Positions 16,064 through 60,535 are shown, numbered from the stretch's first letter. The stretch is 60,535 nt of DNA from a virus (IMGVR_UViG_3300045988_170019:1-60535), one strand, 5' to 3'. The notes: generated by a model from the letters alone, not told the origin. Made by a program: numbers and translations.

Positions 16064-16105
16064 AAAAAAGAAAAAAAGGAAACCCTATGTTTCCATAGAA
16101 TTTCC
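16064..16105 (-). terminator. intrinsic terminator, conserved CTATGGAAACATAG-type hairpin
   Basis: Minus strand: GGAAATTCTATG-GAAA-CATAGGGTTTCC followed by a long T-run. Confidence 0.65.
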
Positions 16106-18523: not shown

Positions 18524-18542
18524 GATAATATTCTCCTTTTTA

Positions 18543-18576
18543 TAAAAAGTAAGACCCTATGTTTCCATAGAGTCTT
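18543..18576 (-). terminator. intrinsic terminator, conserved CTATGGAAACATAG hairpin
   Basis: Minus strand: AAGACTCTATG-GAAA-CATAGGGTCTT then ACTTTTTAT. Confidence 0.65.
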
Positions 18577-19139: not shown

Positions 19140-19168
19140 AATAAATAACCTCCTAAATTTCATTCTTC

Positions 19169-19192
19169 ACTATAGGAGCTGATTATTTCGCG
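19169..19192 (-). promoter_or_regulatory. Promoter-motif copy (CGCG-N14-TAWAAT)
   Basis: Minus strand: CGCGAAATAATCAGCTCCTATAGT then GAAG. Confidence 0.55.
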
Positions 19193-19421: not shown

Positions 19422-19423
19422 TG

Positions 19424-19456
19424 TAAAAAGCAAGAGCCTATGTTTCCATAAGCTCT
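19424..19456 (-). terminator. intrinsic terminator, conserved hairpin family
   Basis: Minus strand: AGAGCTTATG-GAAA-CATAGGCTCT then TGCTTTTTAC. Confidence 0.6.
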
Positions 19457-19462
19457 ATATTT

Positions 19463-20914: not shown

Positions 20915-20965
20915 GTCAAAAGGAAAAGCTCAAGACTCTATGTTTCCATAAAGTCTCAAGCTTTT
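20915..20965 (-). terminator. intrinsic terminator, extended version of the conserved hairpin
   Basis: Minus strand: AAAAGCTTGAGACTTTATG-GAAA-CATAGAGTCTTGAGCTTTT then CCTTTTG. Confidence 0.65.
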
Positions 20966-21697: not shown

Positions 21698-21735
21698 AAA
21701 TAAAAAGAAAGACCCTATGTTTCCATAGAGCCTTT
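21698..21735 (-). terminator. intrinsic terminator, conserved hairpin family
   Basis: Minus strand: AAAGGCTCTATG-GAAA-CATAGGGTCTTT then CTTTTTATTTT. Confidence 0.65.
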
Positions 21736-22012: not shown

Positions 22013-22048
22013 TAAAAAGAAAAGACTCCATGTTTCCACAGAGCCTTC
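22013..22048 (-). terminator. intrinsic terminator, conserved hairpin family (G-U wobble variant)
   Basis: Minus strand: AAGGCTCTGTG-GAAA-CATGGAGTCTT then TTCTTTTTAC. Confidence 0.55.
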
Positions 22049-24032: not shown

Positions 24033-24146
24033 AATAAAAAACCTCCTATATTTACTGAGCACCAGAACCCAATAAATATAAAAGGTTTGTAGGCTTAGAC
24101 TCGGATTGTTCATAGGTTCGTTTTCGCAAAACCAGGCTAATTCACA

Positions 24147-32547: not shown

Positions 32548-35500
32548 TTATCCTCTGCTGGTATCTCGTCCAATCTGCCGCACAATCTTGCTTACCGCCT
32601 TATTGGCAACAGCTTCCGGGTCCGGATTGGTAATGTCAAACTTGTTATTCATTGTAACCGGCGGGTTATCGCGCAGTGCCTTCAACTCATTCGCTACCTT
32701 TTCCAATCCATTTTGATTTTCATTAGCCTTCTTGGCGTCCATACTGGCAGCCGCAGAACTTACATAAGCATAAGCGGTATCAAGCCGCAAACCCGTATTC
32801 ATTCCGGTCGTCATGCCGTTCAACTGTGCAACACCATTTTTTACAGCATCCAAGTCCACAATTGGGCGGATAATCGGTGTCAGATCAATTCCGTCAAACA
32901 TCCCTCGGATTCCATAAATACTATTTTGTGCAGCATTTACAGTTTCACTCGCGGTTCGTTTAGCAGCTTCTTTTGCCACTCGCCCATACTTCAGTATGCC
33001 TTCTGCCAGTCCTTTATCGGTTTGCATACCAATCCAGGCAAATTTTTTACTGGGGCTGTGTACATCAAGGGTATCACAAGCCGCACGGTATGCTTCCAAA
33101 GCAATGTTACTTGCTGCCGTAATAGCATCCATCTTGGCATCTTTCATACCTTTAACAAATCCAGCAATCACATAGCTGCCAGCATTTGCAAAATCGTCAT
33201 ACCGATTACTCATAGCAGTAATCATCTCATCGCAAACACTGCTGATGTATTTGCCAAAGTCTTCTTTACGGCTATTCAAATATTCAATGGCCGCATTCAA
33301 CATCCCTTCAAAAGCCTGAATCACAACCGTCTGGTCTGTACCAATTTGTGTTGCCATATCTCCAATAATGTTGGTAATCGTCTGCTGTGCAGTCAATGTA
33401 ACATTAGGCGCTTTATTTGTAATCCCAAGCATCAGCCTGTCAATCATCGTTTCGCCGGTCTTTTGCATGTTGGAATAAAGCAACTCCAGATTGTTGTACA
33501 TGCTGTCATCAACGCTGAACAAATCTTGCATAGCTTGGCCCATGGTCCAAAGCTGACTTACATTTTTGCCGTCCAACAGGTCAACAATGTCAACAAGTCC
33601 TTTTATGCCGTTTATTGCAAACATCAACTTTTTGGGGTCCATGTTACAAATGTTATTATAATATATTTTAAAATTTGCACCAAAATCGGCCAAGTTCTTG
33701 CCAAATGTTCCGATGTTGTTATCACCGCTAAACAAACTAACCAATCCGCCAGAATTGGGAATTGCATTTGAAAGTTCAATAATAGTATTTGCCGCAGCAC
33801 TAGACCCAGCCAAACGGTCTTCAGTAATTCCTTCAATATAACTAGCATATTGAGCAAAATTCTCGCCAAATATCGCCAACTGTGAACCAAAAGTATCAAG
33901 ATTCTGATTACCAACGAGTGACTGCAAAAAGCCACCACTTCTATTTATAGCATCAGCAAAATCAGTAATGGTCTTTGCCGCCGCACTTGTCGCAGTAACA
34001 ACCTCCGTATCAATTCCGGCTACGGATTCTGCATAGGTTGCAAAATATCCACCAAAACTCGCTAGCCCTTGCCCGAAGCTATCCAGGTTTTTAGAGCCGA
34101 AAAATTCTTGCAGCATTCCTCCGGTAGCTGGTATCTTCGTAGCAAACTCTGCTACAGTGTCCATAGCATCGGTCAGTTTCGTTACCTTATTTACGTCGGT
34201 AATGCTCACGCTCTTCATGTTCGTACTAAGGGCATCGAAGCCAAGGCTAATCTGGTTCAAAGCATCTTTAAACCATTCATATCCATTTTGATTGTTCAGC
34301 CCGCTCAATGCATTGCCGATCTGAGCCGCTCCCAACGTGGTAACTAAATCGACCAAATTTTTAACGCCATCGATTTTACTGCTGTCCACTTTGTCCAGCA
34401 TATCAATAAAATTCGCAGAGTTTTTGGCAAAAGCACTCAGGTTTTCACCAATTCGGCCAAATCCATCCGTCAGTCCGGCACTGAAATTACCAATAAAACC
34501 ACCAATAGCAGAACCAAGATGGTCCATAAAATTGACAAAGCGGTCCATATTGGCCCCATCTTCGTCCACATATTGCAGAACAAAGCCAATACCTTCCATC
34601 GCTCCAGCCATAACGGTCATAAACGCGGTCATATTTGCAGCGGCATTAAGAGCACCAGTAAATGGAATATTATTCAGTATTACCATTGCACCACTCATTG
34701 CAAGCAATAGCAAACTTAAACTCTCAGCAATCGGTAATAATCGACTGGTATTTTTAATTTTGTCTTGCATAACATAGAGTAAATATCCCAGCGCCGCAAC
34801 AGCAGCAGTAATCAACACAAGTCCAGCTTTTGATTTTCCCGCAAACTGGCTCATGCCCATCACAATACCAAGGCAAACCATTAGCTTACTCAAAGCATTA
34901 GTTGCATTATCCAGCTCTTCAGAATCCATCAAACTCATCGCAAACATTACTGCCGCAATTCCGGCAACAACAACGCCGATAGATAGGATTACTTTCTCAC
35001 TTCCCTTTGCAAACTGACTCACAGCCATCATGCCACTTAATAGTCCAGTAATAACTGTCAAACAAGCAAGTGCGTTTCCAAGTTTGCTTTGATCGAGCGC
35101 AGTCAATATTGCTACTGATCCAGCTACCAAAAGTAAACTGGCACTCATCGCGGCAATACCACCGCCGGCTTTAAGCATATTATCCCCGGCGAATTTACTA
35201 AAATACATAAAGGCATCAAACAAACCGCTTACTGCTGCAACAAATGCCGTTCCAATCACAACATCTTCTGGATTCAATTCGCTCAACTGCCGGAATGCTT
35301 CCAAAATAACCAATAGACTGGCACTCATCATCAAAATTGCAGCGCCACCTTTACTCGCATTCGGACCAACTTTTCCACTAGCGGCCATTAAACCCGCAAA
35401 AGTTCCAAATACAATAACAAAACTTGAAAGATTTTCTTTAATACTTGTTAAATCAAGAGCAGCAATCTCTTCAAACAAACTAATGAAATATTTTAATCCA

Positions 35501-38500
35501 AAAGAAAGAGCCAAAATGCTTAAAGCTCCGCCAACACTTCCTTTTCCAGCCAAACTTGCTGTAATGGCAAGCGTACCCATTAAAAGCGCTATTTTCTTTA
35601 TACTATTCGTTAGATCGTCGATATTATATTTTTCCAAACCATTTAAGCTACTTAGCACAATTTTAAGTGCCAACGCAGTTGCAATTAACTGGAGCGCCGT
35701 TCCGGTACTTCCTGCACCAATAAATTTATTTATAGAATTTAGTCCAGCCATAAACGCTACTAAAGCCCCAGAAATAGCACCAAGTACAGATATTCGTTTT
35801 AATAGGGTTTCACCTTCTAAACCTTCTAAATCTTTTAAGGCTTTAACAATCATTAAAACGGATGCGCTCAAAGCAACAACGGTTAAACCGAACCCTTTCG
35901 GATTTGCAATTCTTCCCGTTTTTTCCAAAATTCCCATTGTTGCAATAAGTGCGGTCAATCCAAGAGCCAAACTGCTTAAAGCCGAAACAGATGTAAGTAA
36001 TTTATTTTGGTCAACAAACGTCAACGCAATCAAACTGCCTGCTAAAATTGCAATAGCGCCAGCGATCTTTAACAGGTTTCCTGCCATTATTTGCTTTTGG
36101 TATGCTACAAGCACATTTTTAAATTCCCGCAAAACACCAATAGCAGTATCTTTAACGCTATCAGTTGCCTTACCTACTTTACCAAATACAATGCTCAAGT
36201 CGTACAATGTTTTCAGCACACCACCGCTTACCAAAATTCCAATAAATTTAGTAAGCCCAAATTTGCTAATTTTTGTATTTGCGGTGCTAAAAAGTCCGCC
36301 TAAAAACTCGTCTGCCGCTTTTTTAGCTTCTTCAAATTTGTTTTTTGCCAGTCCGATCGTGTTATCAATATTTGTTTTAAATCCGGTTAAATTTCCAGTA
36401 AATTGTTCCCATTTCTGATTTAAAGTATCAAGGGCCTGTCCGCCGCTAATTTTTAAATTCTCAAACAGCTGAATAATATCGTCAAAAGTAATTCCGTCAG
36501 TGCTTGTCAATTTTTCAAAAAATTCTTCTAATGCCGGGCTAAACTCGTCGATCAGCTCTTTTCCAGTTTTTAGCCCTTCCTGGAATATTTCACTTAACTT
36601 TTTAAATCCATTTTGAACGGTGGGCAGCTCTTTAAAACTGTTAAACCATTTCTTTCCAGTCTCAACGGCAAGTCTCAGAATATTTCGTACTGCATTAATG
36701 CTTTTTTGCAAAACTTGGTGTTCTGTCGCCAAGCTTTTCACCTTGGTAATACCATTTACCAAAAAGCCCGTACCCTTATCAATCACCGCATTCAGTTTAG
36801 TATTGGTATTCAGCCACTCCCGCAGCCCAACAATGTGGTTCCCAATATTGCTGGTGTAATCCAACATATTCAGATTCACATCGCCAATCAAAGCGTTCAA
36901 GACTTTAAGCCCGCTTTTTGTTAATTTAGTTACCGCATCCTTTACAATACCCAAAACACTGGATAACCCTTTTAGGGTCTGCTTCAATTTATCAGCATTA
37001 TCATCGCTTAAAACCAGCTTTTCGCTCAGCTTCTCAATTCGCTGCATAAGTTTATAAACTTGGTCGGCGGTAACCGGCGGGAACACATCATCCCAACTTC
37101 CCTTTACAATGTCCATCTGCTGCTTTACCATCTGCAACGCATTAGCAGCACTCTGGATCATCAGTTCCCGTCCGCTCGGTCTGTCAAGTTCAGCTATCAA
37201 CTCGTTTAGCGGCGTTCCGGTCTCTTCAGCCTGCTTTGCCAATTCCTGCAAAGCTTTCGACTGCTCATCAGTAACGCCAACGGCTTTTAACTGCTCTTCA
37301 GTCAAGTCTTCAACGGTCAACTTGGTTCCAGCTAAAACTTTATTTACCATTCCCTGGATTTGGGCGTAGTCGTATCCGGCTTCTTCCAGCGCCTTCTTTC
37401 GGGCAGCACCGTTTCCGTAGTTGCCTTTAATAACCTTTGTTGCCAAATCGTTAAATTCGGCCAGTTTATCATTTACACTTTCTGTGCTTGTAACAACCTC
37501 GCCATTATATTTAGCCAACGTCTCCTTGACCAAATCAACGGTAAGCCATCCTTTTTTTAGTGTTGCCTGAAAGTCTCCCTCCTGGGCAATCATTTCATCA
37601 ATCGCAACACCGTGTGCTTTTGCGGTTTGGGTTACAGCCTCACGGAACGCATCTCCGCCAATTCCATTTTGAAATAATTTACTCCAGGCCGTTTCATCAA
37701 TCGATGCCGTATTAGCGGCAAAAACTTCTTCCAAAAAGTTATTTCGGTCTTCCGCTCCGCCAGCAAAAATATCATAAAGATCATTTGCTAAATCGGTCCA
37801 CATATTCTTGGCTTCTTCATAATTACCAAAAATAATTTCAAACGTATTGGCCCATCCGGTGCTCACTGCATCCTTCACGGAATTAATCGCATCCGTAAAC
37901 GTCTTTGCTTCCTGTGCTGCCTTAAAAGCTCGCTCACCAAGGTTCATGGTTTCGCCATTTACCTGCTCCATTGCCTGCGCACAGGTCAATCCCTTTTCGG
38001 TAGCAACAGTATAAACTTGATCAGCATATTCTCCGTATTTATTTAACGTTTTCAGCAGTACGTCACTTGTAAACCAGGCTTCAGACAAAGTGGAGGCGAA
38101 ATTCTCAACCGTAACAGCGGTACCATTTGCTGTTTTGCCCTGTGCATTCAATTCGCCAAGAGCTTTTGCGGTCTCAATCGCCGTTTCCTTAAATTCCTTG
38201 GTGGCCATGTTAGCATTTTCAACGCTCTTCCAATCCATCAATTTAACAGCGCCAACACCGATCGCCTGGCTCAGGTTATACATGGCACGGCTTGCTTCGT
38301 TTACACCCTGTCCGCTAATGGCCGCCCAGTTGGCAATACCCTCCATTGCAGTAACACTGGTATCCAGATCAATGCCCATAGAGGTAAATTTACCGATATT
38401 AGCAATCATATCAGTAAAGTTATAGCTGGTCTCATCCGTAAACCAATTTAGCTTCGCCAGCTTCTCACTAACGGAATCAATGCTTTCCCCTGTAGCATTT

Positions 38501-38871
38501 ACAATAGTCTGAACTGAGGTCGTCTTTTGTTCATATTTCCCAAATCCTTCCGCAATCTGGTCCAGGCTCAAAGATTTTACCAGGTTTTCGCCGGTTGTAA
38601 TCGCCTGGTTGGTAATTCGCTGCAAAGCAGTAATGCCCATAATTTCAAGGGCTGTAAACTTCTGCTGTACAGCCTCAATTCCGCTGGCAACGCCATCCAG
38701 GCTAAAATTTTTACCAGCATCACTCAAAGCGGTCAAGTTTTTTGCACTTTCTCGCAAATCCAGGCTTTTGTCCAGTTTATCCAGTGTTTCAATACTTTGT
38801 TTTGCTCCGCGTTCAAACTGACCATTGTCAAATTGCATTTCTACAATTCGCTGATCGATACTTGTGCTCAT
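32548..38871 (-). CDS. tape measure protein (about 2107 aa)
   Basis: Very long Ala/Gly/Leu-rich helical protein with a central block of hydrophobic helices. Sits between the chaperones and Dit. Start set at the ATGA overlap with the upstream stop. Confidence 0.85.
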   Translation of the reverse strand: MSTSIDQRIVEMQFDNGQFERGAKQSIETLDKLDKSLDLRESAKNLTALSDAGKNFSLDGVASGIEAVQQKFTALEIMGITALQRITNQAITTGENLVKSLSLDQIAEGFGKYEQKTTSVQTIVNATGESIDSVSEKLAKLNWFTDETSYNFTDMIANIGKFTSMGIDLDTSVTAMEGIANWAAISGQGVNEASRAMYNLSQAIGVGAVKLMDWKSVENANMATKEFKETAIETAKALGELNAQGKTANGTAVTVENFASTLSEAWFTSDVLLKTLNKYGEYADQVYTVATEKGLTCAQAMEQVNGETMNLGERAFKAAQEAKTFTDAINSVKDAVSTGWANTFEIIFGNYEEAKNMWTDLANDLYDIFAGGAEDRNNFLEEVFAANTASIDETAWSKLFQNGIGGDAFREAVTQTAKAHGVAIDEMIAQEGDFQATLKKGWLTVDLVKETLAKYNGEVVTSTESVNDKLAEFNDLATKVIKGNYGNGAARKKALEEAGYDYAQIQGMVNKVLAGTKLTVEDLTEEQLKAVGVTDEQSKALQELAKQAEETGTPLNELIAELDRPSGRELMIQSAANALQMVKQQMDIVKGSWDDVFPPVTADQVYKLMQRIEKLSEKLVLSDDNADKLKQTLKGLSSVLGIVKDAVTKLTKSGLKVLNALIGDVNLNMLDYTSNIGNHIVGLREWLNTNTKLNAVIDKGTGFLVNGITKVKSLATEHQVLQKSINAVRNILRLAVETGKKWFNSFKELPTVQNGFKKLSEIFQEGLKTGKELIDEFSPALEEFFEKLTSTDGITFDDIIQLFENLKISGGQALDTLNQKWEQFTGNLTGFKTNIDNTIGLAKNKFEEAKKAADEFLGGLFSTANTKISKFGLTKFIGILVSGGVLKTLYDLSIVFGKVGKATDSVKDTAIGVLREFKNVLVAYQKQIMAGNLLKIAGAIAILAGSLIALTFVDQNKLLTSVSALSSLALGLTALIATMGILEKTGRIANPKGFGLTVVALSASVLMIVKALKDLEGLEGETLLKRISVLGAISGALVAFMAGLNSINKFIGAGSTGTALQLIATALALKIVLSSLNGLEKYNIDDLTNSIKKIALLMGTLAITASLAGKGSVGGALSILALSFGLKYFISLFEEIAALDLTSIKENLSSFVIVFGTFAGLMAASGKVGPNASKGGAAILMMSASLLVILEAFRQLSELNPEDVVIGTAFVAAVSGLFDAFMYFSKFAGDNMLKAGGGIAAMSASLLLVAGSVAILTALDQSKLGNALACLTVITGLLSGMMAVSQFAKGSEKVILSIGVVVAGIAAVMFAMSLMDSEELDNATNALSKLMVCLGIVMGMSQFAGKSKAGLVLITAAVAALGYLLYVMQDKIKNTSRLLPIAESLSLLLLAMSGAMVILNNIPFTGALNAAANMTAFMTVMAGAMEGIGFVLQYVDEDGANMDRFVNFMDHLGSAIGGFIGNFSAGLTDGFGRIGENLSAFAKNSANFIDMLDKVDSSKIDGVKNLVDLVTTLGAAQIGNALSGLNNQNGYEWFKDALNQISLGFDALSTNMKSVSITDVNKVTKLTDAMDTVAEFATKIPATGGMLQEFFGSKNLDSFGQGLASFGGYFATYAESVAGIDTEVVTATSAAAKTITDFADAINRSGGFLQSLVGNQNLDTFGSQLAIFGENFAQYASYIEGITEDRLAGSSAAANTIIELSNAIPNSGGLVSLFSGDNNIGTFGKNLADFGANFKIYYNNICNMDPKKLMFAINGIKGLVDIVDLLDGKNVSQLWTMGQAMQDLFSVDDSMYNNLELLYSNMQKTGETMIDRLMLGITNKAPNVTLTAQQTITNIIGDMATQIGTDQTVVIQAFEGMLNAAIEYLNSRKEDFGKYISSVCDEMITAMSNRYDDFANAGSYVIAGFVKGMKDAKMDAITAASNIALEAYRAACDTLDVHSPSKKFAWIGMQTDKGLAEGILKYGRVAKEAAKRTASETVNAAQNSIYGIRGMFDGIDLTPIIRPIVDLDAVKNGVAQLNGMTTGMNTGLRLDTAYAYVSSAAASMDAKKANENQNGLEKVANELKALRDNPPVTMNNKFDITNPDPEAVANKAVSKIVRQIGRDTSRG

Positions 38872-39245
38872 TCCTTCACCACCTCTTGCCATGCCTCATC
38901 CGCCATTTTTTCAAACACCGGCCGCAGCGCAGGGTTAATATAATCAATTCCTTGCACATATCCGCCATTTCTTGTTCCATGCCCGTATTGCAGCAGTAAG
39001 GCAACACTAACTCCATGGTTCAAGTTTGTATTGTTAAATCCAATCGTATAGCCGGTTTGGGTCTGTTCAATTTCATATTCCCAACTTCCAGCTGTTTTTC
39101 CGGTGTCTTTTGGCGTTGCTGCACTCAGGGCATCCACACCCCGTTGTCCATATTTCTTCAAAACGTCCCGGTAATTCCGGCGCACAATTCGTTCCAAGAA
39201 GTTTCTTGTCTTTTTCAAATCCCCTCTATGCCGTATTACCACCAT
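38868..39245 (-). CDS. HK97 gp10-like tail-component protein
   Basis: DALSAATPKDTGKTAGSW resembles the gp10-family A..P..TG.L..S block. Start ATG lies inside a late-junction motif. Confidence 0.35.
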   Translation of the reverse strand: MVVIRHRGDLKKTRNFLERIVRRNYRDVLKKYGQRGVDALSAATPKDTGKTAGSWEYEIEQTQTGYTIGFNNTNLNHGVSVALLLQYGHGTRNGGYVQGIDYINPALRPVFEKMADEAWQEVVKE

Positions 39246-42327: not shown

Positions 42328-44115
42328 TTATTCAGTGGTAACGCTCTTCTTCGTCTCAAATACGATTGCGGACTTCGGAACGGTAAGTGCACCACTGCAA
42401 CGGGTCTCAATCAGATACTTGTACTGGTTGTAGTCAATATCGAAATCGTCAAACATGTTCACGCTACCGCCCTTGTCTGCACCAACGCTGTAGTCTGCCA
42501 GATTGACCATAATCCCGTAAAGAGTATAGGTATCGGTGGTCTTTCCAGCGGTAGTGCTGCGGGTCAAACCTTCCATCTGGGGCACAGTAATAATACTGCT
42601 CACACGCATAGCGGTTGCCAGGTCGTTTACGCTACTATAAATCCGGCGACCATTCTTATCTTTCAGCAGCAACATTTCAGCAAGCACATCCTCGGTTGTA
42701 AACAGAACCGGGTTGCCGCTGCCTTTGTACTCCTTACGGGCACGGATGGCATCATCCATCATATTCTCAGCAGTAGCAGCGGCAGTTGCACCTTCGGTAA
42801 TTTCGCGCTTAATGGTAAACAGAACATCATCGGTCCAAATCGGGCGAATATGCTGCTCCTGAATCTTGTCATCGCTGCTGGGGTCACGGCCGTCACCAAT
42901 CAGGATAGCGCGTGCCAGTTCCTCTTCCAGCTTACCGCGCATCTCGTTCTTAATCCACGCAACAACGTCGAAACCGGTAATGTCCAGAACATCGTCACGG
43001 TCCAGTTTCTGCTTCTTATAAACGGTCTGGGGGTCAGTGGTACGTTTTGCCAGGGTAATAACCTCTTCTACCTTCTTCTTACCCTTGGTATAGCCTCGTG
43101 CACGTGCTTCATCCGCAGTAATGTCTGCAAAGCTGGTCTTTACGCGGCTGAACGGCAAGTGCTTAACACCGTTCATAACCTTTCCAACCCAGGTCTGGTC
43201 GCGGTCAATAAATTTGGGCGGATTGTTCAGTTCCTTGTATTCCGGGAACAAAGCATCAATCCCGTCAATCCCATAATTTGCCTTGTGGCTCAAAAAGTCC
43301 TCGCAAGCTTCTTTCAGGGTCAGTCGGCCTTTCTTGGCAGTGTCAAAAATGGTTTCAATGTCGCTGTGGGTCAGTACATCTTCATGCTGGGCACTGCCCT
43401 TATCAAAAATATTTTCTTTCATATTGCCATCCTCCTCATCATTGTGTTTCGCTTCATCGTTATTTTTTGCAGCATCTACTGCTACCGCAATCGCAGCATA
43501 GGCAACCTTCTTCTGGCGGTCCGTCATACTGTCAAACACATCCTGCACGGTTTCCTCATCTTCAGGTTTCTTTGCTTCTTCTGCGGGTTTTTCTTCACTA
43601 GGTTTTTCCTCTGCCGGCTTTGTGTCATCATGCTCCAAGCTTTCGCAAAAAGCAGTATTTTCATCAGCACAGCAAATGAAAGCCGCATCTTCACTCTCTT
43701 CACCATGTAGCAATTCCGGTTCAATGCCTGCTTTTGGATTTGCGCCGGCCAATACCAGGCTCACTTCCCGAATCATACCGTGCTGCACATTACCAGAACG
43801 CCGGTCACCTTTGTACTGCAATTTATTTGCGTAAATACTAAAAGAGGTAATATCCTGATTTTTTACCAACTCTTTAGCAGTCTTACCATTCTTGGTATCA
43901 TTAAATTTGCAGTAGGTATACATGCCTTCCGGTCTTGCTTCCAATAGCGCATGGCCCAACACATCTGCCGGATCATCATGGTTGTGGTTCCAAATCAGGG
44001 GAACCGTCGCACCATCCTGGTCAGCAAAAGCGCCATGCATAATCGTTCGGCCATCGCCGCACAACACACCGTACTGTGTCGCCCAACCATGACAATCATA
44101 ATTTTCTTTTGCCAT
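42328..44115 (-). CDS. prohead protease (HK97/S78-type) - scaffold linker - HK97-fold major capsid protein fusion
   Basis: N-terminal protease: VPLIWNHNHDD..VLGH...REVSLVLAGANP. Acidic/Lys-rich linker: PAEEKPSEEKPAEEAKKPEDEE. C-terminal ~330 aa is capsid-like. Confidence 0.75.
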   Translation of the reverse strand: MAKENYDCHGWATQYGVLCGDGRTIMHGAFADQDGATVPLIWNHNHDDPADVLGHALLEARPEGMYTYCKFNDTKNGKTAKELVKNQDITSFSIYANKLQYKGDRRSGNVQHGMIREVSLVLAGANPKAGIEPELLHGEESEDAAFICCADENTAFCESLEHDDTKPAEEKPSEEKPAEEAKKPEDEETVQDVFDSMTDRQKKVAYAAIAVAVDAAKNNDEAKHNDEEDGNMKENIFDKGSAQHEDVLTHSDIETIFDTAKKGRLTLKEACEDFLSHKANYGIDGIDALFPEYKELNNPPKFIDRDQTWVGKVMNGVKHLPFSRVKTSFADITADEARARGYTKGKKKVEEVITLAKRTTDPQTVYKKQKLDRDDVLDITGFDVVAWIKNEMRGKLEEELARAILIGDGRDPSSDDKIQEQHIRPIWTDDVLFTIKREITEGATAAATAENMMDDAIRARKEYKGSGNPVLFTTEDVLAEMLLLKDKNGRRIYSSVNDLATAMRVSSIITVPQMEGLTRSTTAGKTTDTYTLYGIMVNLADYSVGADKGGSVNMFDDFDIDYNQYKYLIETRCSGALTVPKSAIVFETKKSVTTE

Positions 44116-51448: not shown

Positions 51449-51764
51449 CATCATGATACCCGGCATAAACCTTAAATACGTTGATTGCATTCCGTACCAT
51501 TTCGTCGGTCTGGGTTGCGCTTTCAATATTTTTAGTTTTTGCTTCCGCTAATTTCTGCTGTGTTTTTAGCATTTCAAGTTCAAGCTTTGCCTGGGCAGTT
51601 CCAAGCTTCAAATAATGTGTAATTACCTGACTACTGGCCGTATGGTTCATCAGCTGCTCTTCAGCACAATCCATCGCTAATGCAATCAACTGCTTTTCTC
51701 GTGCTTCCGGGCTTCTTGCTCTTCGCATCACCGGTTTCTCTCCAGTAGATGCACGTCTTGCCAT
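51438..51764 (-). CDS. terS: putative terminase small subunit
   Basis: 108-aa basic/helical protein (SPEAREKQLIALAMDCAEEQLMNHTASSQVITHYLKLGT). It is the first gene after the structured non-coding region and lies upstream of HNH and terL. Confidence 0.45.
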   Translation of the reverse strand: MARRASTGEKPVMRRARSPEAREKQLIALAMDCAEEQLMNHTASSQVITHYLKLGTAQAKLELEMLKTQQKLAEAKTKNIESATQTDEMVRNAINVFKVYAGYHDDED

Positions 51765-52058
51765 ACTTTACCACTCCTTTCTGGATTTAGTGAGAGAGTT
51801 TTTGCAGGGAATAAGGGTACTTCTCGAAAGGAGAATAAAAAGAGAAGTGTAGCCGTACCTTATTTCGTTACCCTTATTCCCTCCAAATACCCCCTCACAG
51901 CGCCGTAAATATCATCGGATTCAGCGTATCTCCCATAAACAACCAAAATCCGGTTCATGCTGAGGAATCAACTTCCCCAAAAATCACCCTCCGGAGATTT
52001 TTCAAAGATCGGCGCGATGAAGGGAGGGGGTGATATTTTTTAGACCCCCCTATATCCT
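51765..52058. promoter_or_regulatory. 294-nt structured non-coding region upstream of terS (candidate cos/pac region and/or late promoter)
   Basis: Largest non-coding gap in the late region. Contains the 75-nt inverted repeat and a second one (ATCACCCTCC at 51984-51993 / GGAGGGGGTGAT at 52023-52034). Confidence 0.45.
51807..51881. repeat. 75-nt nested inverted repeat (13-bp perfect outer arms GGGAATAAGGGTA / TACCCTTATTCCC)
   Basis: Outer arms at 51807-51819 and 51869-51881. Inner arms CTTCTC/GAGAAG at 51820-51825 and 51842-51847. An extra ATAAGGTAC half-site is present. Confidence 0.85.
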
Positions 52059-52373
52059 TTACGAACTAACATCAGATGAAACCAATTCATTTTTCTTATT
52101 TTTATCTGACACTTTTACATAAATTCCCATAAAATCTGTGTTTAAGATCTCGTTAATTGCTGTTTCAATGTTTTCTTCAATTTCTTCATCACTCAGCTCA
52201 TCATCATTTGTACTCAAGCCAAGTGCATCAAGCGTTCTTGCAAGCAAACCGCAAGAATTGTAGCCCTTTTGAATATCAAACATGAACCAAGGAACGAATT
52301 GCTCGAATGGGTCATAAGGATTATCATAAGTCGTTAAACTATAACGAATTAGAGAAGACTTTTCTTCTTTCAT
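52059..52373 (-). CDS. hypothetical acidic protein (104 aa)
   Basis: Track ORF with an AAAGGAGTGAATTC SD. Confidence 0.5.
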   Translation of the reverse strand: MKEEKSSLIRYSLTTYDNPYDPFEQFVPWFMFDIQKGYNSCGLLARTLDALGLSTNDDELSDEEIEENIETAINEILNTDFMGIYVKVSDKNKKNELVSSDVSS

Positions 52374-52391: not shown

Positions 52392-55196
52392 TCATTTCAA
52401 ATATTTACTTACTGTAGATGCCGAAATATTAAGACTTTCTGCAATTTCAGTTGTTGAATAACCAGACGCAGCACGAGCTTTAATCAAGTTAATCTTTGCC
52501 TGACTTAATTCGGCGCTTTGTCTTGGTGTTGCACGAGCACGAAGTTCATCGATGTCCATGTTATCAATGATTTTTCTTAAAACGTTCTCACTAATAGCAC
52601 CCGCCTGAATCGCTTCCCATTCACGATCAGTCATTTTAATAGGGGTACGCTTGGCCCCTACCTGAGTCCGGGCCCGTACAAGGGCCTGCTGGGATACCTT
52701 CTTTAGCATCTTTTTACTACTATTCTCAGCCAGTGATGGGTCTTCTGCTACCTTAGCCTTAACCTCATTATTAGCAAGGATCTGTGCCCGACGTTCTTTA
52801 GGACGATTAGCTTCTGACACTGCAAGTTTAGCCATAAGAGTGTCCACCTCATCCTTATAAGCTGCCTTAGCTGATGCCTTATATTCGATCTTACCCGCAT
52901 TCAGCATATCTTTTCGTGCTCGATTTGCAAGCGATTTCATATGGTTTGCATAATCAGCATAAGCCTGCTCCTGCTTGGTATTCATATCCGATACCAGAGT
53001 ATACGCATCTTTGGCCTCGGCCATCCTGGTAGAAGGCTGAGTTCTCATCTTAACCTTACCGGTCTCTACCCATTCGCCAGTGGTCTTATCTTTCTTTTTC
53101 TCGTTATAGTAGAGATCTTTTGTTACAGTCCAATACTGTTCGCCAGTTTCTGGATCAATCTTGGCTGAACCCTGACGCTTGGGAACGCTGACTTCACTCT
53201 TCGCAAGACTAAGCAAAGTAGAAGCACCTTCATGATATCTGCCATTTTCATCAATAGTACCTTGATATTTACGTTTTAAGGCAGCAATACCATTCTCTTC
53301 TTCACTGCGCTTGTAATCAAGATGATGCTTCTCGGCATCAATAACAACCATTGAATGTCTAACAGCACGAGCCAATTCGTCGTCTGTAGCGCCTTTCAAC
53401 GTCATATCGGTAATCAAGTTAGAAATAACGCCCATCTGTTTCTGAGTGTCTTTCATCACTTTCATACCCTCACGTTCAGGGTAGGCCATCTTAGGGTCAA
53501 ACCAAGAACCATCAGAATTCTTAAGACCTTTCAGTGGTTCTTTAGAAAGAATTTTAATCTTTCCGCCTGTAGGAATGACCATAACAGTATCGCCGTCAAA
53601 GTCTGCGCCAGACAATCGTTCTGCAACTTTAGAGCTAATACCAACCGCATCTAAAGGATTCGCACCGAGAACCCGTTTACCTTCCGGATTCTTATTATTC
53701 ACTTTTAGTACCGGAATCTCAAAGATGCCGCCATGAGGAAAGCGAACAAGCGCAACACTTTCACCATCTTTATAGTTGGGTGCATAAACTTCATTATCGC
53801 CAATACTGGTAAGCGGTACGATAACTTGATAACGCTGTCTCGGTAATGCAGCAGCCTTCAAAGTAACAGCATCTTTATCACAACCATCGGCAAACTTCTT
53901 CAAAAGAACTTTTTTAATAGTTGGATTTGTAAGTGCATTGATTTCTGCTAATTCCTCATCGGCAGCGGCTTTAGTCAAATTAAGCTGTTTATGAATCAAC
54001 TGGATGCTCTGTTTTCCCAAAAACTGCGATGGCAATCGTTTAGACCATTCGCCCCAATCACCTTCGGCTTTACATTTGTTAATGAGAGATAGAGACTGTT
54101 TTTTACCAGTAACACCGTCAACATAATCGCCTTTGGGATCATCGTAAAAAGACTGACCACCATGTTCTTTGATTAAAGCACCAAATGGATTATCCCGATC
54201 AATCTCACCATCGGGTTTGGTTTTTACCGGTTTCAAAACTTCACGCCAAGTTTTATTGGAAGACTTATTAGTATTAAAAATAACGTCAACCCCATCCGGC
54301 ATATCATCCGAATAAACGGCCATACCTTTCAAATACCGGTCTCCACCAACCATAATACGAACCTGAGCATAATTGGATTCGCCAAGATTCAAATCCTTTA
54401 CGCCGCGACGAAGCTCAATCACACCATCTTTTTCAAGACCGCCTTCTTCAGCATACCGAATTTTCAAACGTTTTGGGTCCATACTGGACGGATATTCGAA
54501 AGGCTTATGAAATGTCTCGCCATCATCATACGAAACCGCATAATCTGAGACGGCTCCAATTTTAGAAACGTCATAGATATCGCTTTTCTCAGTACCAGGC
54601 TTGCACAAAAGCTTCAATGTAGTTTTCTGATTTGGATTTGTAACCTGATTTAGTCGTCTTTTTTCGGTTAAATATCCATCAACTTCCAACTGATACAAAG
54701 CTTCATCCAGTTTATTTCTTGAAACACCCAATTCCCGTTCAACGCCAGGCCCAACATCCACAATACCTTTTTCATCCACAATTTCTTTCAGCTTTTTCGC
54801 CGTTGTAACAGCAGCTCTAGTCCTTGCTTCCGAATTTTCATTGAGTAAACTTCGAATCGTAGATTCATTCAAACCGCCCATTGCTTTACCAATATCAGCA
54901 TTACTCAGACCATCTTCTTTTAGACTCCGAGCACGGTCAATCTGCCAAATTCGGGATTGATTTTTTGCATAAGCAATCTGAGGTCTAAGTTTTGTCGTAG
55001 TAGTGCCCATTGCTTCAGCAATCTCAACTTCAGAAAGTCCCTGATTCTGATATTCATAATATCGACTCAAAATTGTACCGGTTCTTTGATACGGGTTTTC
55101 GCCACTGCCCCATGGATATCTACCAGAATGTCTCGGCGTGCCATAATGGGCTAATTCTTCAATTTCCTCTAAGGATGGTTTAACGCGGTATTGCAT
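52392..55196 (-). CDS. YonO/RdRP-like double-psi-beta-barrel RNA polymerase homolog with HTH-like segments (934 aa)
   Basis: aa484-494 VRFPHGGIFEI, aa529-536 SGADFDGD (DFDGD at nt 53589-53603) and aa617-624 VVIDAEKH match the R.P.H / ADFDGD / VD..K pattern of beta'-type and RdRP/YonO-type catalytic barrels. HTH-like segments at aa52-75, aa96-120 and aa912-934. Confidence 0.55.
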   Translation of the reverse strand: MQYRVKPSLEEIEELAHYGTPRHSGRYPWGSGENPYQRTGTILSRYYEYQNQGLSEVEIAEAMGTTTTKLRPQIAYAKNQSRIWQIDRARSLKEDGLSNADIGKAMGGLNESTIRSLLNENSEARTRAAVTTAKKLKEIVDEKGIVDVGPGVERELGVSRNKLDEALYQLEVDGYLTEKRRLNQVTNPNQKTTLKLLCKPGTEKSDIYDVSKIGAVSDYAVSYDDGETFHKPFEYPSSMDPKRLKIRYAEEGGLEKDGVIELRRGVKDLNLGESNYAQVRIMVGGDRYLKGMAVYSDDMPDGVDVIFNTNKSSNKTWREVLKPVKTKPDGEIDRDNPFGALIKEHGGQSFYDDPKGDYVDGVTGKKQSLSLINKCKAEGDWGEWSKRLPSQFLGKQSIQLIHKQLNLTKAAADEELAEINALTNPTIKKVLLKKFADGCDKDAVTLKAAALPRQRYQVIVPLTSIGDNEVYAPNYKDGESVALVRFPHGGIFEIPVLKVNNKNPEGKRVLGANPLDAVGISSKVAERLSGADFDGDTVMVIPTGGKIKILSKEPLKGLKNSDGSWFDPKMAYPEREGMKVMKDTQKQMGVISNLITDMTLKGATDDELARAVRHSMVVIDAEKHHLDYKRSEEENGIAALKRKYQGTIDENGRYHEGASTLLSLAKSEVSVPKRQGSAKIDPETGEQYWTVTKDLYYNEKKKDKTTGEWVETGKVKMRTQPSTRMAEAKDAYTLVSDMNTKQEQAYADYANHMKSLANRARKDMLNAGKIEYKASAKAAYKDEVDTLMAKLAVSEANRPKERRAQILANNEVKAKVAEDPSLAENSSKKMLKKVSQQALVRARTQVGAKRTPIKMTDREWEAIQAGAISENVLRKIIDNMDIDELRARATPRQSAELSQAKINLIKARAASGYSTTEIAESLNISASTVSKYLK

Positions 55197-55198
55197 AA

Positions 55199-55849
55199 TT
55201 AAGCCTCCGATTTTTTAATTTCTTCTACCAGATTGACGCCAGCAACAATTTTATCCATAACGGGGCGAATATCATCCAACGTTGGATTGATTGCAATTAC
55301 ATCCTCAGACTGATAAATCCGCAACTCAAAATCAAGTTTATTCAAATCCAGTTTCATTCGCTTGATGTCGTTTTCATACTCCAAACAAAAAAGAGCAGCG
55401 TAAATCAATAGCTGCTCCATATGGGCCGGTGTCGTCCCTGTTTTTAAATCATGAATTCTAACTCGATTCTGATAAAATGAAATTGCATCTGTTGTACCAA
55501 AACAAGTCGGGGCGTAATACAAAACTTGTTCTGGAGACATTCGGTAACTGATCGCGTCGTTCACATAATTCCGAAAATTCCCGAACAGATCATCAACGTT
55601 AAATACCCCCCTAGGTACTCCGTGAGATAGCAAATGATAAGTAAGCAGTTTTGAATCCGACTTTGACAGCTTCATATGATTCTCAATTAATCCCGCTGCC
55701 AATTCGTGCAGATACGTCCCAACCGCTTGGGTATAGCTGCTTTTATATTTGGCAATCATTTGGTCATCCGTATAATTCAACCAATGATATTTGCTTGCGC
55801 CCAAAAAGGCATGTTCACCGACTAACTTGGAATGATCGTGCCAAATCAT
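55199..55849 (-). CDS. PD-(D/E)XK (Cas4/RecB-like) nuclease
   Basis: GASKYH...TDAISF....VRIHDLKTG.....EQLLIYAAL matches the D..(D/E)xK plus QxxxY layout. Confidence 0.55.
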   Translation of the reverse strand: MIWHDHSKLVGEHAFLGASKYHWLNYTDDQMIAKYKSSYTQAVGTYLHELAAGLIENHMKLSKSDSKLLTYHLLSHGVPRGVFNVDDLFGNFRNYVNDAISYRMSPEQVLYYAPTCFGTTDAISFYQNRVRIHDLKTGTTPAHMEQLLIYAALFCLEYENDIKRMKLDLNKLDFELRIYQSEDVIAINPTLDDIRPVMDKIVAGVNLVEEIKKSEA

Positions 55850-56120
55850 CTAAAACCTCCATCATGTTTTCAGGGTAAACAAATCTTCCAACAGACATTT
55901 TGTCTGCCTGCAAAATATAAAAGTCCTGATTTGGTTGATGACTCGCTTTTTCACTCTGCTTAATCTCCAGTACCGCCCAACGATCTTTATACAAAACCGT
56001 TAAATCTGGAAATCCCTGAATATAATTGGGATCATTCTTCAAAACAATCGCTCCAGGAAACCGTTTCTTAATTTCCCGTATAAGTTTTGCTTGAAACGCC
56101 GATTCCTTCATGTTGAGCAT
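55815..56120 (-). CDS. VRR-NUC-type nuclease (101 aa)
   Basis: ESAFQAKLI..I...P......N....QGFPDLTVLY..RWAVLEIKQ......NQ. Confidence 0.55.
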   Translation of the reverse strand: MLNMKESAFQAKLIREIKKRFPGAIVLKNDPNYIQGFPDLTVLYKDRWAVLEIKQSEKASHQPNQDFYILQADKMSVGRFVYPENMMEVLDDLARSFQVSR

Positions 56121-56130: not shown

Positions 56131-56186
56131 GCAAAAAGCAAGAGAATATGTCCAATAGCAAAAGTCGCCATTGTATCTATTCTCTT
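56131..56186 (-). terminator. long-loop hairpin plus U-run immediately downstream of a promoter-motif copy
   Basis: Minus strand: AAGAGAATA-(29 nt)-TATTCTCTT then GCTTTTTGC. The predicted start site falls inside the 5' arm. Confidence 0.4.
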
Positions 56187-56187
56187 C

Positions 56188-56211
56188 ATAAAAGAGCATG
56201 AAATTTTCGCG
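56188..56211 (-). promoter_or_regulatory. Promoter-motif copy (CGCG-N14-TAWAAT, weak -10)
   Basis: Minus strand: CGCGAAAATTTCATGCTCTTTTAT then GAAG. Confidence 0.4.
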
Positions 56212-60480: not shown

Positions 60481-60535
60481 AAAAGAAATAGAATAAGTTT
60501 TCGTCCGTAGCCAGAGCTGTGCCCAACGCTTCACA
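60481..60535. repeat. Terminal overlap copy 2 (identical to 1-55)
   Basis: Exact 55-nt identity with the start of the window. Confidence 0.95.

Follow-up and report, generated by a model that had tools for sequence, protein, structure and literature searches.

Results

Organization of the polymerase locus

The locus contains an open reading frame of 934 aa with an ATG start (52392..55196, minus strand), whose product is a single-chain relative of the cellular RNA polymerase catalytic core, fused to predicted DNA-binding domains. It was found in a window (the whole stretch of DNA analysed, 60,535 nucleotides) representing the circular 60,480-bp genome of a temperate phage related to Lachnospiraceae prophages. 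An earlier note on this DNA had described the phage as temperate and the gene as standing at the head of the late block, and both descriptions hold. A tyrosine integrase is encoded at 23046-24113 and relatives sit in the chromosomes of cultured Lachnospiraceae; on the circular map, the polymerase gene is the last of the final early/middle operon, just ahead of a cos-like site and a late block of about 25 kb. The phage also has a primase-polymerase of 1319 aa, a helicase and an SSB, and no tRNA genes were found in it. The features of the locus are as follows.

56178..56211, minus strand: promoter-like motif CGCGAAAATTTCA-TGCTC-TTTTAT-GAAGAG, upstream of the endonuclease-exonuclease-polymerase operon
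56140..56186, minus strand: leader hairpin followed by a U-rich tract, attenuator-like, between the promoter-like motif and the endonuclease start
55815-56120, minus strand: VRR-NUC-like endonuclease (phrog_93, E = 6.6e-11), in the same operon, upstream of the polymerase
55199-55849, minus strand: Cas4/RecB-like exonuclease (phrog_3953, E = 2.2e-59), in the same operon, upstream of the polymerase
52392..55196, minus strand: coding sequence of the two-barrel RNA polymerase homolog (phrog_4291, E = 0 over the full length; AlphaFold2 model with Foldseek matches to QDE-1, RDR2 and P74 gp62)
52059..52373, minus strand: 104-aa acidic partner ORF (phrog_4303, E = 1.4e-27), always directly downstream of the polymerase homolog
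51985..52053, minus strand: conserved non-coding block AGGGGGG-N12-CACCCCCT..ATCGCGCCGATCTTTGAAAAATCTCCGGAGGG, from the sequence and its alignment with relatives

The order endonuclease-exonuclease-polymerase is repeated in FP_oengus and Mudcat, and in Bing, Gravy and Camille the exonuclease lies directly upstream of the polymerase homolog. In Lactococcus P162, an endolysin and other ORFs intervene between these genes. Orthologs of the small partner from Firmicutes prophages, FP_oengus, Lactococcus P162 and actinophages share an invariant TT.DNP..P...W..FD signature. The AGGGGGG block is kept in 11 of 12 aligned gaps (the window and 11 relatives, L063 being the one that lacks it), and the physical genome ends of actinophage relatives fall at its position. 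This block is probably cos, although it may alternatively be read as a late promoter. The position of the polymerase beside cos/terminase is kept in every lineage examined.

Such a neighbourhood raises the question of whether the protein serves DNA replication, recombination or packaging instead, for instance by supplying the phage DNA polymerase and the neighbouring nucleases with RNA primers or R-loops close to cos. The operon shared with the two nuclease genes and the constant adjacency to the cos-like site speak for such a role, as does the occurrence of two-barrel cores in a DNA polymerase, archaeal PolD (mentioned in PMC10770324). We nevertheless hold it decidedly unlikely: the phage already has its own primase-polymerase, helicase and SSB, multiple HTHs of the sequence-specific type suit promoter binding, and the characterised phage single-chain two-barrel enzymes YonO, P23-45 gp64 and gp96 are transcriptases (PMC5467207, PMC10770324), as crAss-like phage gp66 is also reported to be.

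A widespread family under incomplete or probably misleading names

Residues 10-934 of the protein match positions 7-906 of the 909-position profile of phrog_4291 ('RNA-dependent RNA polymerase') with E = 0 and 1194 bits. Several RefSeq phages annotate the family with that same name, and most databases give only 'HTH DNA-binding domain protein' or a LuxR/CsgD-type regulator; the first label is probably misleading and the HTH label is incomplete. The novelty suggested by the earlier note did not stand, since the family is already PHROG 4291, is annotated in RefSeq, and had been described by Koert et al. (bioRxiv 10.1101/842583) as having an RdRP-like core, a DxDGD loop and HTHs at either end. 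Our literature search found no biochemical or genetic experiment on any PHROG 4291 member.

A family profile search recovered at least 1,096 clusters at 50% identity (E <= 1e-30). Relatives are encoded in prophages of 310 GTDB species-representative genomes, including abundant gut Lachnospiraceae, and in 250 cultured-phage records; more than 200 cultured actinophages carry one. The closest database neighbour is 97% identical and the next ones about 65%. When the 15.5 kb surrounding the gene were compared by Megablast with 50,697 phage records, nothing matched; thus, the phage has no close cultured relative at the DNA level. The supercluster of Koert et al. comprises the actinophage clusters AM, AU, AW, DJ, CC, EL and BI, the Lactococcus 1706-like phages and Faecalibacterium FP_oengus. 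Our protein resembles its 'HTH domain-containing putative RNA polymerase' in its 39-50% identity to 249 phage records, in alignments spanning 98-100% of the length, in carrying the same motifs and HTHs at both ends, and in the synteny of endonuclease, exonuclease, polymerase, small ORF and cos/terminase. Unlike that supercluster, it belongs to a temperate lineage with an integrase, kin to prophages in the chromosomes of Lachnospiraceae and other Clostridia, and this lineage has its own CGCG promoter-like motif.

Predicted fold and active site

Searching PDB chains with the protein and with the family profile matched only the HTH ends and nothing in the core (a phage beta' came up at E = 1.2, not significant). 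Because the fold could not be proven by sequence alone, structure prediction was needed. The AlphaFold2 model of the 934-aa protein (pLDDT 75.6, pTM 0.62) gave 15 Foldseek matches in the PDB with E <= 1e-4, all of them single-chain two-barrel polymerases at probability 1.00: QDE-1 (1.5e-8), maize and Arabidopsis RDR2 (2.5e-6 to 1e-4) and P74 gp62 (4.8e-6). A weaker tier at E = 0.01-0.1 comprised Pol IV NRPD1, bacterial beta' and Rpb1, and no unrelated fold competed in this search. In BFVD, the matches included phage proteins named 'RNA dependent RNA polymerase' and a 616-residue protein, uncharacterized, from Thermus virus P23-45 (A7XX94). Structure prediction was the check that the earlier note had proposed for its central claim, a single-chain double-psi-beta-barrel polymerase homolog of the YonO/QDE-1 kind with HTH modules, and the claim passed it, the predicted structure matching QDE-1, RDR2 and phage gp62 and then beta'/Rpb1. 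According to the model, both catalytic double-psi beta-barrels lie on one polypeptide in the order beta-like then beta'-like, which is also the order in QDE-1, YonO and the Thermus phage gp64/gp62. The elements of the core are listed below.

54264..54467, minus strand: first (beta-subunit-like) double-psi barrel, residues 244-311, with D257, D268, R280 and K290 (model strands E244-308)
53571..53831, minus strand: second (beta'-like) double-psi barrel, residues 456-542, with R485-x-P487-H488 and the metal loop (model strands E456-542)
53589..53603, minus strand: DFDGD with D532/D534/D536, predicted Mg-binding triad, read from the sequence and invariant in the family
53325..53384, minus strand: helix 605-624 (ELARAVRHSMVVIDAEKH) with invariant D620, K623 and H624 (model helix, within the Pfam RdRP match)

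The ORF and every motif quoted in the earlier note were recovered at their coordinates. SGADFDGDTVMVIP is present, with DFDGD (nt 53589-53603) at residues 532-536; the R.P.LH-type block VRFPHGGIFEIPVLKV spans residues 484-499 on the upstream side, with 47 aa from R485 to D532; VVIDAEKHH spans residues 617-625, 81 aa downstream; and the three HTH-like strings occupy residues 54-70, 97-118 and 913-934. Conservation was evaluated in 149 relatives, each representing one cluster at 50% identity and sharing 41-59% identity with the query. The residues R485, P487, S529-G-A-D532, D534, G535, D536, D620, K623 and H624 are each found in 149/149, and so are R280 and K290; D257 and H488 are kept in 147/149 and D268 in 143/149. 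The quoted motifs are thus not a product of chance.

In the second barrel, ADFDGD (residues 531-536) lies inside the beta-rich segment 456-542, and this barrel is collinear with LRSPH...DNDGD of YonO (pairwise E = 6e-4). The invariant R485/P487 pair precedes D532 at a spacing comparable with that of Rpb1 (R446/P448) and Qde1 (R962/P964), in which an invariant R-x-P stands about 45 residues ahead of the aspartate triad (PMC2919709). The beta-type barrel of Qde1 has the acidic D709 and the invariant basic R738 and K743 (PMC2919709). In our protein, hhalign places R280 and K290 on R266 and K271 of YonO in a weak alignment (E = 0.028), and the acidic candidate for the metal site is either D257 or D268. 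R280, K290, R485, P487, D532, D534, D536 and, as one of the two acidic candidates, D257 would correspond to the eight residues that Ruprich-Robert & Thuriaux listed as invariant in all two-barrel RNAPs (PMC2919709). Helix 605-624 is a candidate bridge-helix-like element.

Could the protein be a catalytically inert HTH regulator that merely keeps a polymerase-like scaffold? This is what the HTH or LuxR/CsgD-type annotation of most databases would imply. All metal-binding and basic active-site residues are nevertheless retained in 149/149 representatives at 41-59% identity, which is unexpected for a dead enzyme, and we give this explanation hardly any credence.

Predicted DNA-binding modules at both ends

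Besides the barrels, the protein carries the following segments.

55101..55148, minus strand: N-terminal peptide HYG..R.SGRYPWGSG, residues 17-32, invariant and predicted disordered
54987..55073, minus strand: HTH-1, residues ~42-70 (helices H42-51, H56-62 and H67-94; weak Sigma70_r4/r3 and phrog_7061 matches)
54819..54944, minus strand: HTH-2, residues ~85-126 (HTH_23/Sigma70_r4_2 matches; confident model, pLDDT 84)
54597..54749, minus strand: winged-helix-like module, residues ~150-200 (helices and a beta-hairpin in both models)
52395..52508, minus strand: C-terminal HTH, residues 897-934, sigma region 4/LuxR-like (Pfam)

The C-terminal HTH is significant and the two N-terminal HTHs and the winged helix are supported; the HTH-like segments reported in the earlier note are real. 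YonO lacks Pfam HTHs and has an invariant C-terminal four-cysteine cluster instead. In Pfam, the C-terminal HTH matches HTH_23 (E = 4.4e-8) and Sigma70_r4_2 (E = 3.9e-7), and also HTH_7 and GerE, all above or near their cut-offs; the generic HTH_23, HTH_7 and GerE fit it as well as Sigma70_r4_2 does. HTH-1 matches Sigma70_r3 with E = 4.3e-5 in Lactococcus P162 and E = 0.049 in the query protein. HTH-2 was detected in all nine members scanned and exceeded the gathering score in one (L008, Sigma70_r4_2, 32.2 bits). The winged-helix module gave a GntR-like match of E = 8e-4, under the Pfam cut-off. A fold search with the N-terminal HTH/winged-helix module found nothing significant, the best matches being TFIIE-alpha/TFE winged helices (E = 0.15-1), and a sigma or TFE kinship of this module was dropped because the search gave no significant neighbour. 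In the N-terminal peptide, G19, S24, G25 and R26 are kept in 149/149 representatives; residues 1-39 have a pLDDT of about 30 in the AlphaFold2 model, and the peptide is possibly a docking motif.

Comparison with other single-chain polymerases

YonO of the Bacillus prophage SPbeta, a DNA-dependent RNAP, reads the late genes of that prophage as a single operon (Forrest et al. 2017, PMC5467207). Like YonO, our protein is a single chain of ~100 kDa in which the two barrels follow one another in the same order and at similar spacing, its R-x-P-H ... DxDGD and VR...KG motifs are collinear with those of YonO, and its gene precedes the terminase, portal and structural genes in the genome of a temperate siphovirus. 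Unlike YonO, it has a small partner gene, nuclease neighbours and a cos-adjacent position, all three missing in YonO. BLASTP against YonO found nothing significant, and SPbeta was absent among the tblastn matches at E <= 10. With hhalign, E was 0.02 when the full alignments were compared, 0.008 when the comparison was confined to the two-barrel core and 6e-4 when only the second barrel was used, with probabilities of 2-29%. Orthology was thus rejected on the BLASTP null, the full-length hhalign value (E = 0.022) and the different terminal domains, and PHROG 4291 is a sister family of YonO.

The best structural matches, QDE-1 and RDR2 (PDB 2J7N, 7Y7T, 7W82, 7ROZ), reach E = 1.5e-8 to 1e-4 over up to ~800-950 aligned columns and share the DxDGD loop and the Pfam RdRP region, although at 10-13% identity and TM-scores of only about 0.25-0.30. 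They are eukaryotic, RNA-templated polymerases of RNA silencing and their matches lack attached HTH Pfam domains. Could the phage protein then be a true RNA-dependent RNA polymerase, copying or extending phage or host RNAs, for example in regulation or counter-defence? That RNA-dependent enzymes are its closest solved structures counts against a DNA-templated reading, and the PHROG and RefSeq name and the match to Pfam RdRP (PF05183) point the same way; this match covers residues 523-624 with 15.5 bits (E = 0.0072), below the gathering threshold of 23.8 bits, a few relatives carry it as a precomputed match, and Koert et al. reported 95.7% by HHpred for the family alignment (bioRxiv 10.1101/842583). 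However, the name comes from the Pfam family, with no assay behind it, and the 'RNA-dependent' label is most likely a carry-over of it. Furthermore, YonO, which Iyer et al. placed with the same bipartite RdRP domain, is strictly DNA-dependent (PMC2919709, PMC5467207), the PDB holds QDE-1 complexes with DNA templates (7y7r, 7y7s, 7y7t), and the fused HTHs point to double-stranded DNA. An RNA template is, in our judgement, very improbable.

The nearest solved phage enzyme is P74-26 gp62/P23-45 gp64 (PDB 8F5M; E = 4.8e-6, 555 columns). P23-45 gp64, a close homolog of P74 gp62, is a single-chain two-barrel RNAP of a lytic, thermophilic siphovirus; it reads its own promoter class and transcribes the early genes and part of the middle ones (Chaban et al. 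2024, PMC10770324). These non-virion RNAPs are much smaller (592-616 aa), and HTH domains are not reported for them.

Transcription signals around the gene

Two families of conserved transcription-like signals exist in this genome, as the earlier note had claimed. The leader hairpin has an MFE of -22.8 kcal/mol (z = -5.3; 0/200 shuffles as good), and relatives show an equivalent inverted repeat and T-run in the leader. The promoter-like CGCG motif occurs 16 times, always between genes and on the coding strand; every copy stands 10-35 nt ahead of an SD and ATG and lacks a TTGACA-like -35. A stricter pattern search gave 8 matches where 0.88 would be expected. In front of the polymerase operon, the motif occupies the same site in about 45 of 80 relatives, with 51 matches on the gene strand and 0 on the opposite one. 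The plus strand of the motif was also considered as a T7 promoter core (TTCACTATAGGAG) and set aside as a coincidence, for it runs opposite to every gene and the phage encodes no T7-type polymerase.

These copies, and their fixed place ahead of the polymerase operon, would fit an enzyme that reads the motif CGCGAAATAATCA-N5-CYTWWAATGAA through sigma-like HTHs on the CGCG box and transcribes the early/middle replication operons, not the late block. The three or four predicted DNA-binding modules speak in the same sense, and so does the scan of 10 unannotated early ORFs, among which there was no phage sigma factor or antiterminator. We find this reading unlikely, and the link that the earlier note drew between the enzyme and non-canonical signals was not upheld. 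The motif includes a canonical -10 of the TATAAT type, normally spaced from the start, alternates with hairpin-plus-U intrinsic terminators, which are signals of bacterial RNAP, and is absent from the late block. One copy precedes the polymerase's own operon, a bootstrapping problem for a prophage. In FP_oengus, Lactococcus P162 and Mudcat, whose distant family members have these HTHs too, the flanks contain neither the CGCG motif nor an analogous repeated element, and FP_oengus has ordinary sigma70-like promoters at the same place (TTGCAA-N17-TACGAT); the motif was thus rejected as a universal companion of the enzyme. A box near -25/-30 combined with a -10 is the architecture of activator-dependent host promoters, such as the MotA-dependent middle promoters of phage T4. 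The motif looks like a host-polymerase signal and, with the link unsupported, the 'self-contained transcription system' of the earlier note is still hypothetical.

On the coding strand, the early part contains 12 strong terminators as well as the 16 promoter-like motifs; from about 52 kb to the terminator at 26626 we found no signal of either kind, and no late promoter was identified in the late block. Because the polymerase gene is followed by the late genes with no terminator in between, host polymerase could, on circular or prophage DNA, read through from the promoter at 56211 into the late block.

Discussion

What, then, might this enzyme do? We consider it probable that the protein is an active late transcriptase, a PHROG 4291 member combining a two-barrel core with HTH modules; its genomic position suggests, by analogy, a YonO-like function. 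The enzyme would be made from the last early/middle operon, together with the endonuclease, the exonuclease and the 104-aa partner, and would act as an RNA polymerase that needs Mg and a DNA template. Its task would then be to read the adjacent packaging, head and tail block of ~25 kb as one long unit, as YonO does with the SPbeta late operon, with the HTH and winged-helix modules, perhaps together with the small partner, replacing a sigma factor. More tentatively, and as a possibility on which we would not rely, the protein may be a one-polypeptide 'holoenzyme', with initiation-factor-like modules at both ends of the two-barrel core, an obligatory acidic partner of ~85 aa and its own sigma-free promoter recognition, in charge of late or of all phage-specific transcription. 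If true, this would answer a question raised by YonO, namely whether such enzymes find promoters unaided.

Single-chain RNA polymerases with two barrels are taken to model the ancestor from which all cellular RNA polymerases descend, and few have been studied: YonO, gp66 of crAss-like phage, and gp64 and gp96 of P23-45. PHROG 4291 is far more widespread than these and is the family whose catalytic core carries fused, predicted DNA-binding modules, which makes it convenient for understanding how a minimal polymerase finds its promoters. Tractable hosts are at hand in phages of Arthrobacter, Gordonia, Streptomyces and Lactococcus, and in prophages of Hungatella hathewayi WAL-18680 and [Ruminococcus] torques ATCC 27756.

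A conserved polymerase homolog with a predicted two-barrel fold

The polymerase homolog matches PHROG 4291 ('RNA-dependent RNA polymerase') over its full length (E = 0). An earlier note had taken it, from the sequence alone, for a single-chain RNA polymerase of the double-psi-beta-barrel type with HTH segments, and every string quoted in its support is present in the protein:

52392-55196, minus strand: ORF of the polymerase homolog, 934 aa
Residues 484-499: VRFPHGGIFEIPVLKV
Residues 532-536 (nt 53589-53603): DFDGD, within SGADFDGDTVMVIP
Residues 617-625: VVIDAEKHH
Residues 54-70, 97-118 and 913-934: three HTH-like segments

These resemblances are not due to chance. R280, K290, R485, P487, S529-G-A-D532, D534, G535, D536, D620, K623 and H624 are kept when diverse relatives are aligned, and each occurs in 149/149 cluster representatives (clusters at 50% identity), although these share only 41-59% identity with the query.

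Pfam placed RdRP (PF05183) below threshold, with 15.5 bits over residues 523-624 where the cut-off is 23.8, and sequence searches against solved structures gave no match for the core; a structure-prediction test was therefore run. An AlphaFold2 model built from a 22-sequence alignment (mean pLDDT 75.6, pTM 0.62) was searched against the PDB, where all 15 matches with E ≤ 1e-4 (probability 1.00) were single-chain two-barrel RNA polymerases and no competing unrelated fold was found among the matches.

PDB matches of the model
Neurospora and Thielavia QDE-1: E = 1.5e-8 to 5e-7
Maize and Arabidopsis RDR2: E = 2.5e-6 to 1e-4
Thermus phage P74-26 gp62: E = 4.8e-6
Next, Pol IV NRPD1, bacterial beta' and eukaryotic Rpb1/RPA1: E = 0.01-0.1

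In a viral structure library, the model matched A7XX94 of Thermus virus P23-45, a 616-residue protein that is uncharacterized, as well as phage proteins that bear the name 'RNA dependent RNA polymerase'. The identification made in the earlier note is thus supported by the very test that its author had proposed, structure prediction followed by a fold search.

Two beta-rich modules of the model (residues 244-308 and 456-542) both hold residues from the list of eight that are invariant in all two-barrel polymerases (Ruprich-Robert & Thuriaux 2010, PMC2919709). The match of R485, P487, D532, D534 and D536 to these invariants is unambiguous; R280 and K290 align with R266 and K271 of YonO, the single-chain DNA-dependent RNA polymerase of Bacillus prophage SPbeta, in a sub-profile comparison (E = 0.028), and for the acidic residue of barrel 1 there are two candidates, D257 and D268. 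The protein almost certainly has the two-barrel RNA polymerase fold. We predict with good confidence that it is an active polymerase, and consider it fairly probable that it performs DNA-templated transcription.

An invariant N-terminal peptide, HYG..R.SGRYPWGSG (residues 17-32, nt 55101-55148), is predicted by AlphaFold to be disordered. Its G19, S24, G25 and R26 are each present in 149/149 representatives, and the peptide may serve in docking or targeting.

DNA-binding modules and comparison with YonO

The significant Pfam part of the protein is the C-terminal HTH alone (HTH_23, E = 4.4e-8; Sigma70_r4_2, E = 3.9e-7), which is solid. A scan of the first 235 residues in nine diverse family members detected HTH-2 (about residues 85-126) in 9/9, above gathering scores in one, together with a GntR-like winged helix (residues 155-181, E = 8e-4) and, weakly, HTH-1 (about residues 42-70). 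Modelled separately, residues 36-232 gave a confident structure (pLDDT 84.1, pTM 0.75) in which a winged helix comes after two HTH units. This model had no significant neighbour in a PDB search, its best matches being TFIIE-alpha/TFE winged helices (E = 0.15-1), a weak lead.

How close is this protein to YonO? BLASTP against YonO, taken from SPbeta, gave nothing significant, and SPbeta was missing from the tblastn matches even at E ≤ 10. Profile-profile comparison of the two families yielded one collinear match, on the R-x-P-H...DxDGD segment. Its E-value was 0.022 when the complete alignments were compared, 0.008 (323 columns) with the entire two-barrel core and 6e-4 with only the second barrel. 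Barrel order and spacing are also alike, and the two proteins are related at the superfamily level, but orthology to YonO is rejected. YonO has no Pfam HTH and carries instead an invariant C-terminal four-cysteine cluster; the earlier note was therefore correct that the HTHs set the two apart.

A large and previously predicted family

Full-length homologs with 39-50% identity were found by tblastn in 249/250 matching phage records (Arthrobacter 95, Gordonia 55, Streptomyces 54, Lactococcus 13, as well as gut siphoviruses and Faecalibacterium FP_oengus), where they are mostly annotated 'HTH DNA-binding domain protein' and in some cases 'RNA-dependent RNA polymerase'. The family is very large, with at least 8,000 matches in a word-indexed search, at least 1,096 clusters at 50% identity in a profile search (E ≤ 1e-30) and 310 GTDB species representatives encoding a relative. 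A few JGI records call the homologs 'structural protein'.

Koert et al. (bioRxiv 10.1101/842583) had already described this same protein: they named it a signature gene for a supercluster of actinophages, Lactococcus 1706 and Faecalibacterium phages, with an HHpred match of 95.68% to PF05183, HTH domains at both ends, a DxDGD loop, a RecB exonuclease and a 'conserved hypothetical protein' as neighbours and relatives in Firmicutes prophages, and concluded that it 'could potentially have RNA polymerase activity'. Earlier still, Ruprich-Robert & Thuriaux had described YonO-like proteins from five firmicute phages; the paper on Lactococcus phage 1706 is among their references. Our finding is a rediscovery of a published computational prediction, in a family for which we found no experimental work in the literature.

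Eight relatives (L018, L051, L055, L056, L065, L068, L072 and L080) come from bins labelled Parabacteroides, Tannerellaceae, Bacteroidaceae, Collinsella, Muribaculum or Kiritimatiellae. They lie on phage-sized contigs, and mis-binned phage contigs are more likely than a real host range beyond Bacillota.

Genome organization and the polymerase operon

The window ends in an exact 55-nt direct repeat (1-55 = 60481-60535), and is therefore a circular assembly of a 60,480-bp genome. The minus strand holds all genes and every long ORF.

Gene order in the direction of transcription (minus strand)
About 22.6 kb down to 1, then 60.5 down to 56.3 kb: early/replication genes (primase-polymerase, helicase, SSB, MazG)
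Next: operon of VRR-NUC-like endonuclease, Cas4/RecB-like exonuclease, polymerase homolog and 104-aa ORF (52059-52373)
Next: 295-nt gap (51764-52059), after the 104-aa ORF
Next: phrog_4259, HNH, TerL, portal, protease-capsid, tail and tape-measure genes
23046-24113, last: tyrosine integrase

A temperate lifestyle is supported by the integrase and by relatives embedded in scaffolds of the chromosomes of cultured bacteria (Hungatella hathewayi, [Ruminococcus] torques, Blautia faecis, Cuneatibacter and Enterocloster).

The order exonuclease, polymerase, small ORF is shared by FP_oengus, Mudcat, Bing, Gravy and Camille, and the endonuclease precedes it in those whose flank on that side was examined. 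In Lactococcus P162 the polymerase and the small ORF remain paired at the right end, with other genes between exonuclease and polymerase. Where the phage record is linear, the genes of this group come last, before the right genome end. The acidic 104-aa product (phrog_4303) is always encoded directly downstream of the polymerase homolog, and its orthologs, which occur in Firmicutes prophages, FP_oengus, Lactococcus P162 and actinophages, have the invariant pattern TT.DNP..P...W..FD...L.R in common. This product is a candidate for an accessory subunit or for a modulator of host RNAP.

The gap before the packaging genes holds two conserved non-coding blocks:

51985-52053 and 51825-51836, minus strand: G-run/C-run hairpin with ATCGCG(G/C)CG(G/A)TC and CCGG(A/G)GGG, then TTCTCCTTTCG

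These blocks lie where cultured relatives have physical genome ends. When the gap was aligned with those of 11 relatives, a G-run/C-run block of about 75 nt (AGGGGGG...CACCCCCT..ATCGCGGCGGTC...CCGGGGG), at the right-genome-end position, was kept in 11/12. The conserved block is probably a cos site.

Transcription signals and the possible role of the polymerase homolog

The motif CGCGAAATAATCA-N5-CYTWWAATGAA (CGCG motif) has 16 intergenic copies, on the coding strand only and in the early/replication part only. It combines a TATAAT-like -10 with an invariant CGCG box and lacks a -35; a stricter pattern gave 8 matches against 0.88 expected. Many copies directly follow near-identical intrinsic terminators, forming repeated terminator-promoter cassettes.

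CGCG motif copies and associated hairpins
60429, 60025, 56211, 22571, 22308, 22012, 21385, 19589, 19421, 19192, 18880, 17457, 16449, 7810, 4092 and, weak, 57304, minus strand: first bases of the motif
3733-3767, 7748-7782, 16070-16104, 18542-18576, 19423-19457, 20923-20957, 21700-21734 and 22013-22047, coding strand: terminator hairpins (AAGACTCTATGGAAACATAGGGTCTT and T-run)
56140-56186, minus strand: leader hairpin and U-tract (-22.8 kcal/mol, z = -5.3)

The last copy in transcription order, at 56211, lies just after a terminator and ahead of the operon with the polymerase gene. Between it and the SD of the next gene stands the strong leader hairpin, which could control this operon, either as a site of attenuation/antitermination or as a 5' stabiliser. 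A similar hairpin and U-tract separates promoter-like motif and SD at 7748-7784, and the leader hairpin is kept in relatives, apparently with compensatory changes.

Across 80 related prophage loci the motif was found 51 times on the gene strand and 0 on the other, with exactly one operon-proximal copy in about 45/80. It is missing from FP_oengus, Lactococcus P162 and Mudcat; FP_oengus has TTGCAA-N17-TACGAT promoters at the same place. Because of this absence, the canonical -10 hexamer and the bacterial-type terminators, we infer a lineage-specific host-RNAP promoter, probably activator-dependent, rather than the promoter of the polymerase homolog. The homolog and the motifs are confirmed as observations. 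As for the self-contained phage transcription system proposed in the earlier note, its two signal families exist, but the motif reads as a host promoter and is absent from three phages that encode a homolog; the system as a whole is a hypothesis against which part of the evidence speaks.

On the reverse strand, the motif (e.g. 19158-19192, plus strand, TTCACTATAGGAG) resembles the T7 promoter core. A T7-type promoter was rejected, as its direction would be opposite to that of every gene and the phage has no T7-type polymerase; the likeness is probably coincidence.

From about 52 kb to a terminator at 26626 we found no CGCG motif and no strong terminator, and therefore the packaging/head/tail block looks like one unit of about 25 kb. 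YonO is a processive DNA-dependent RNA polymerase which reads the late genes of SPbeta as a single operon from one start, with an undefined promoter (PMC5467207); yonO, too, lies upstream of the terminase and portal genes. By analogy, the last early/middle operon would supply the polymerase homolog, which would go on to transcribe the neighbouring late block; the fused HTH and winged-helix modules of the homolog, and possibly the 104-aa partner, would direct it to DNA. Specific transcription of the late genes is a tentative proposal, to which we give somewhat less than an even chance. The main caveat is that host RNAP may read through from the 56211 promoter into the late genes, which nothing would stop on circular or prophage DNA.

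Other features of the gene blocks

Three phrog_2152 paralogs of unknown function (13461-14396, 16455-17216 and 17765-18523, minus strand; E = 1e-55 to 5e-80) sit in the motif-rich early part, with CGCG motif copies 16449 and 17457 between them. The 2114-aa tape-measure protein (32548-38892, minus strand) has an internal endolysin-like segment (phrog_7698, residues 472-522). The 595-aa head protein (42328-44115, minus strand) may be a fusion of protease and capsid, since it matches a head-maturation protease family (E = 5.5e-212) as well as families of major head proteins. Finally, CCATTTTGATTTTT is repeated at 26608, 32704, 39242, 40931, 42285, 44112, 45430 and 49279 (plus-strand coordinates); its coding-strand form, AAAAATCAAAATGG, is a conserved spacer plus ATG at late-gene starts, which suggests a uniform translation-initiation context for the late block.
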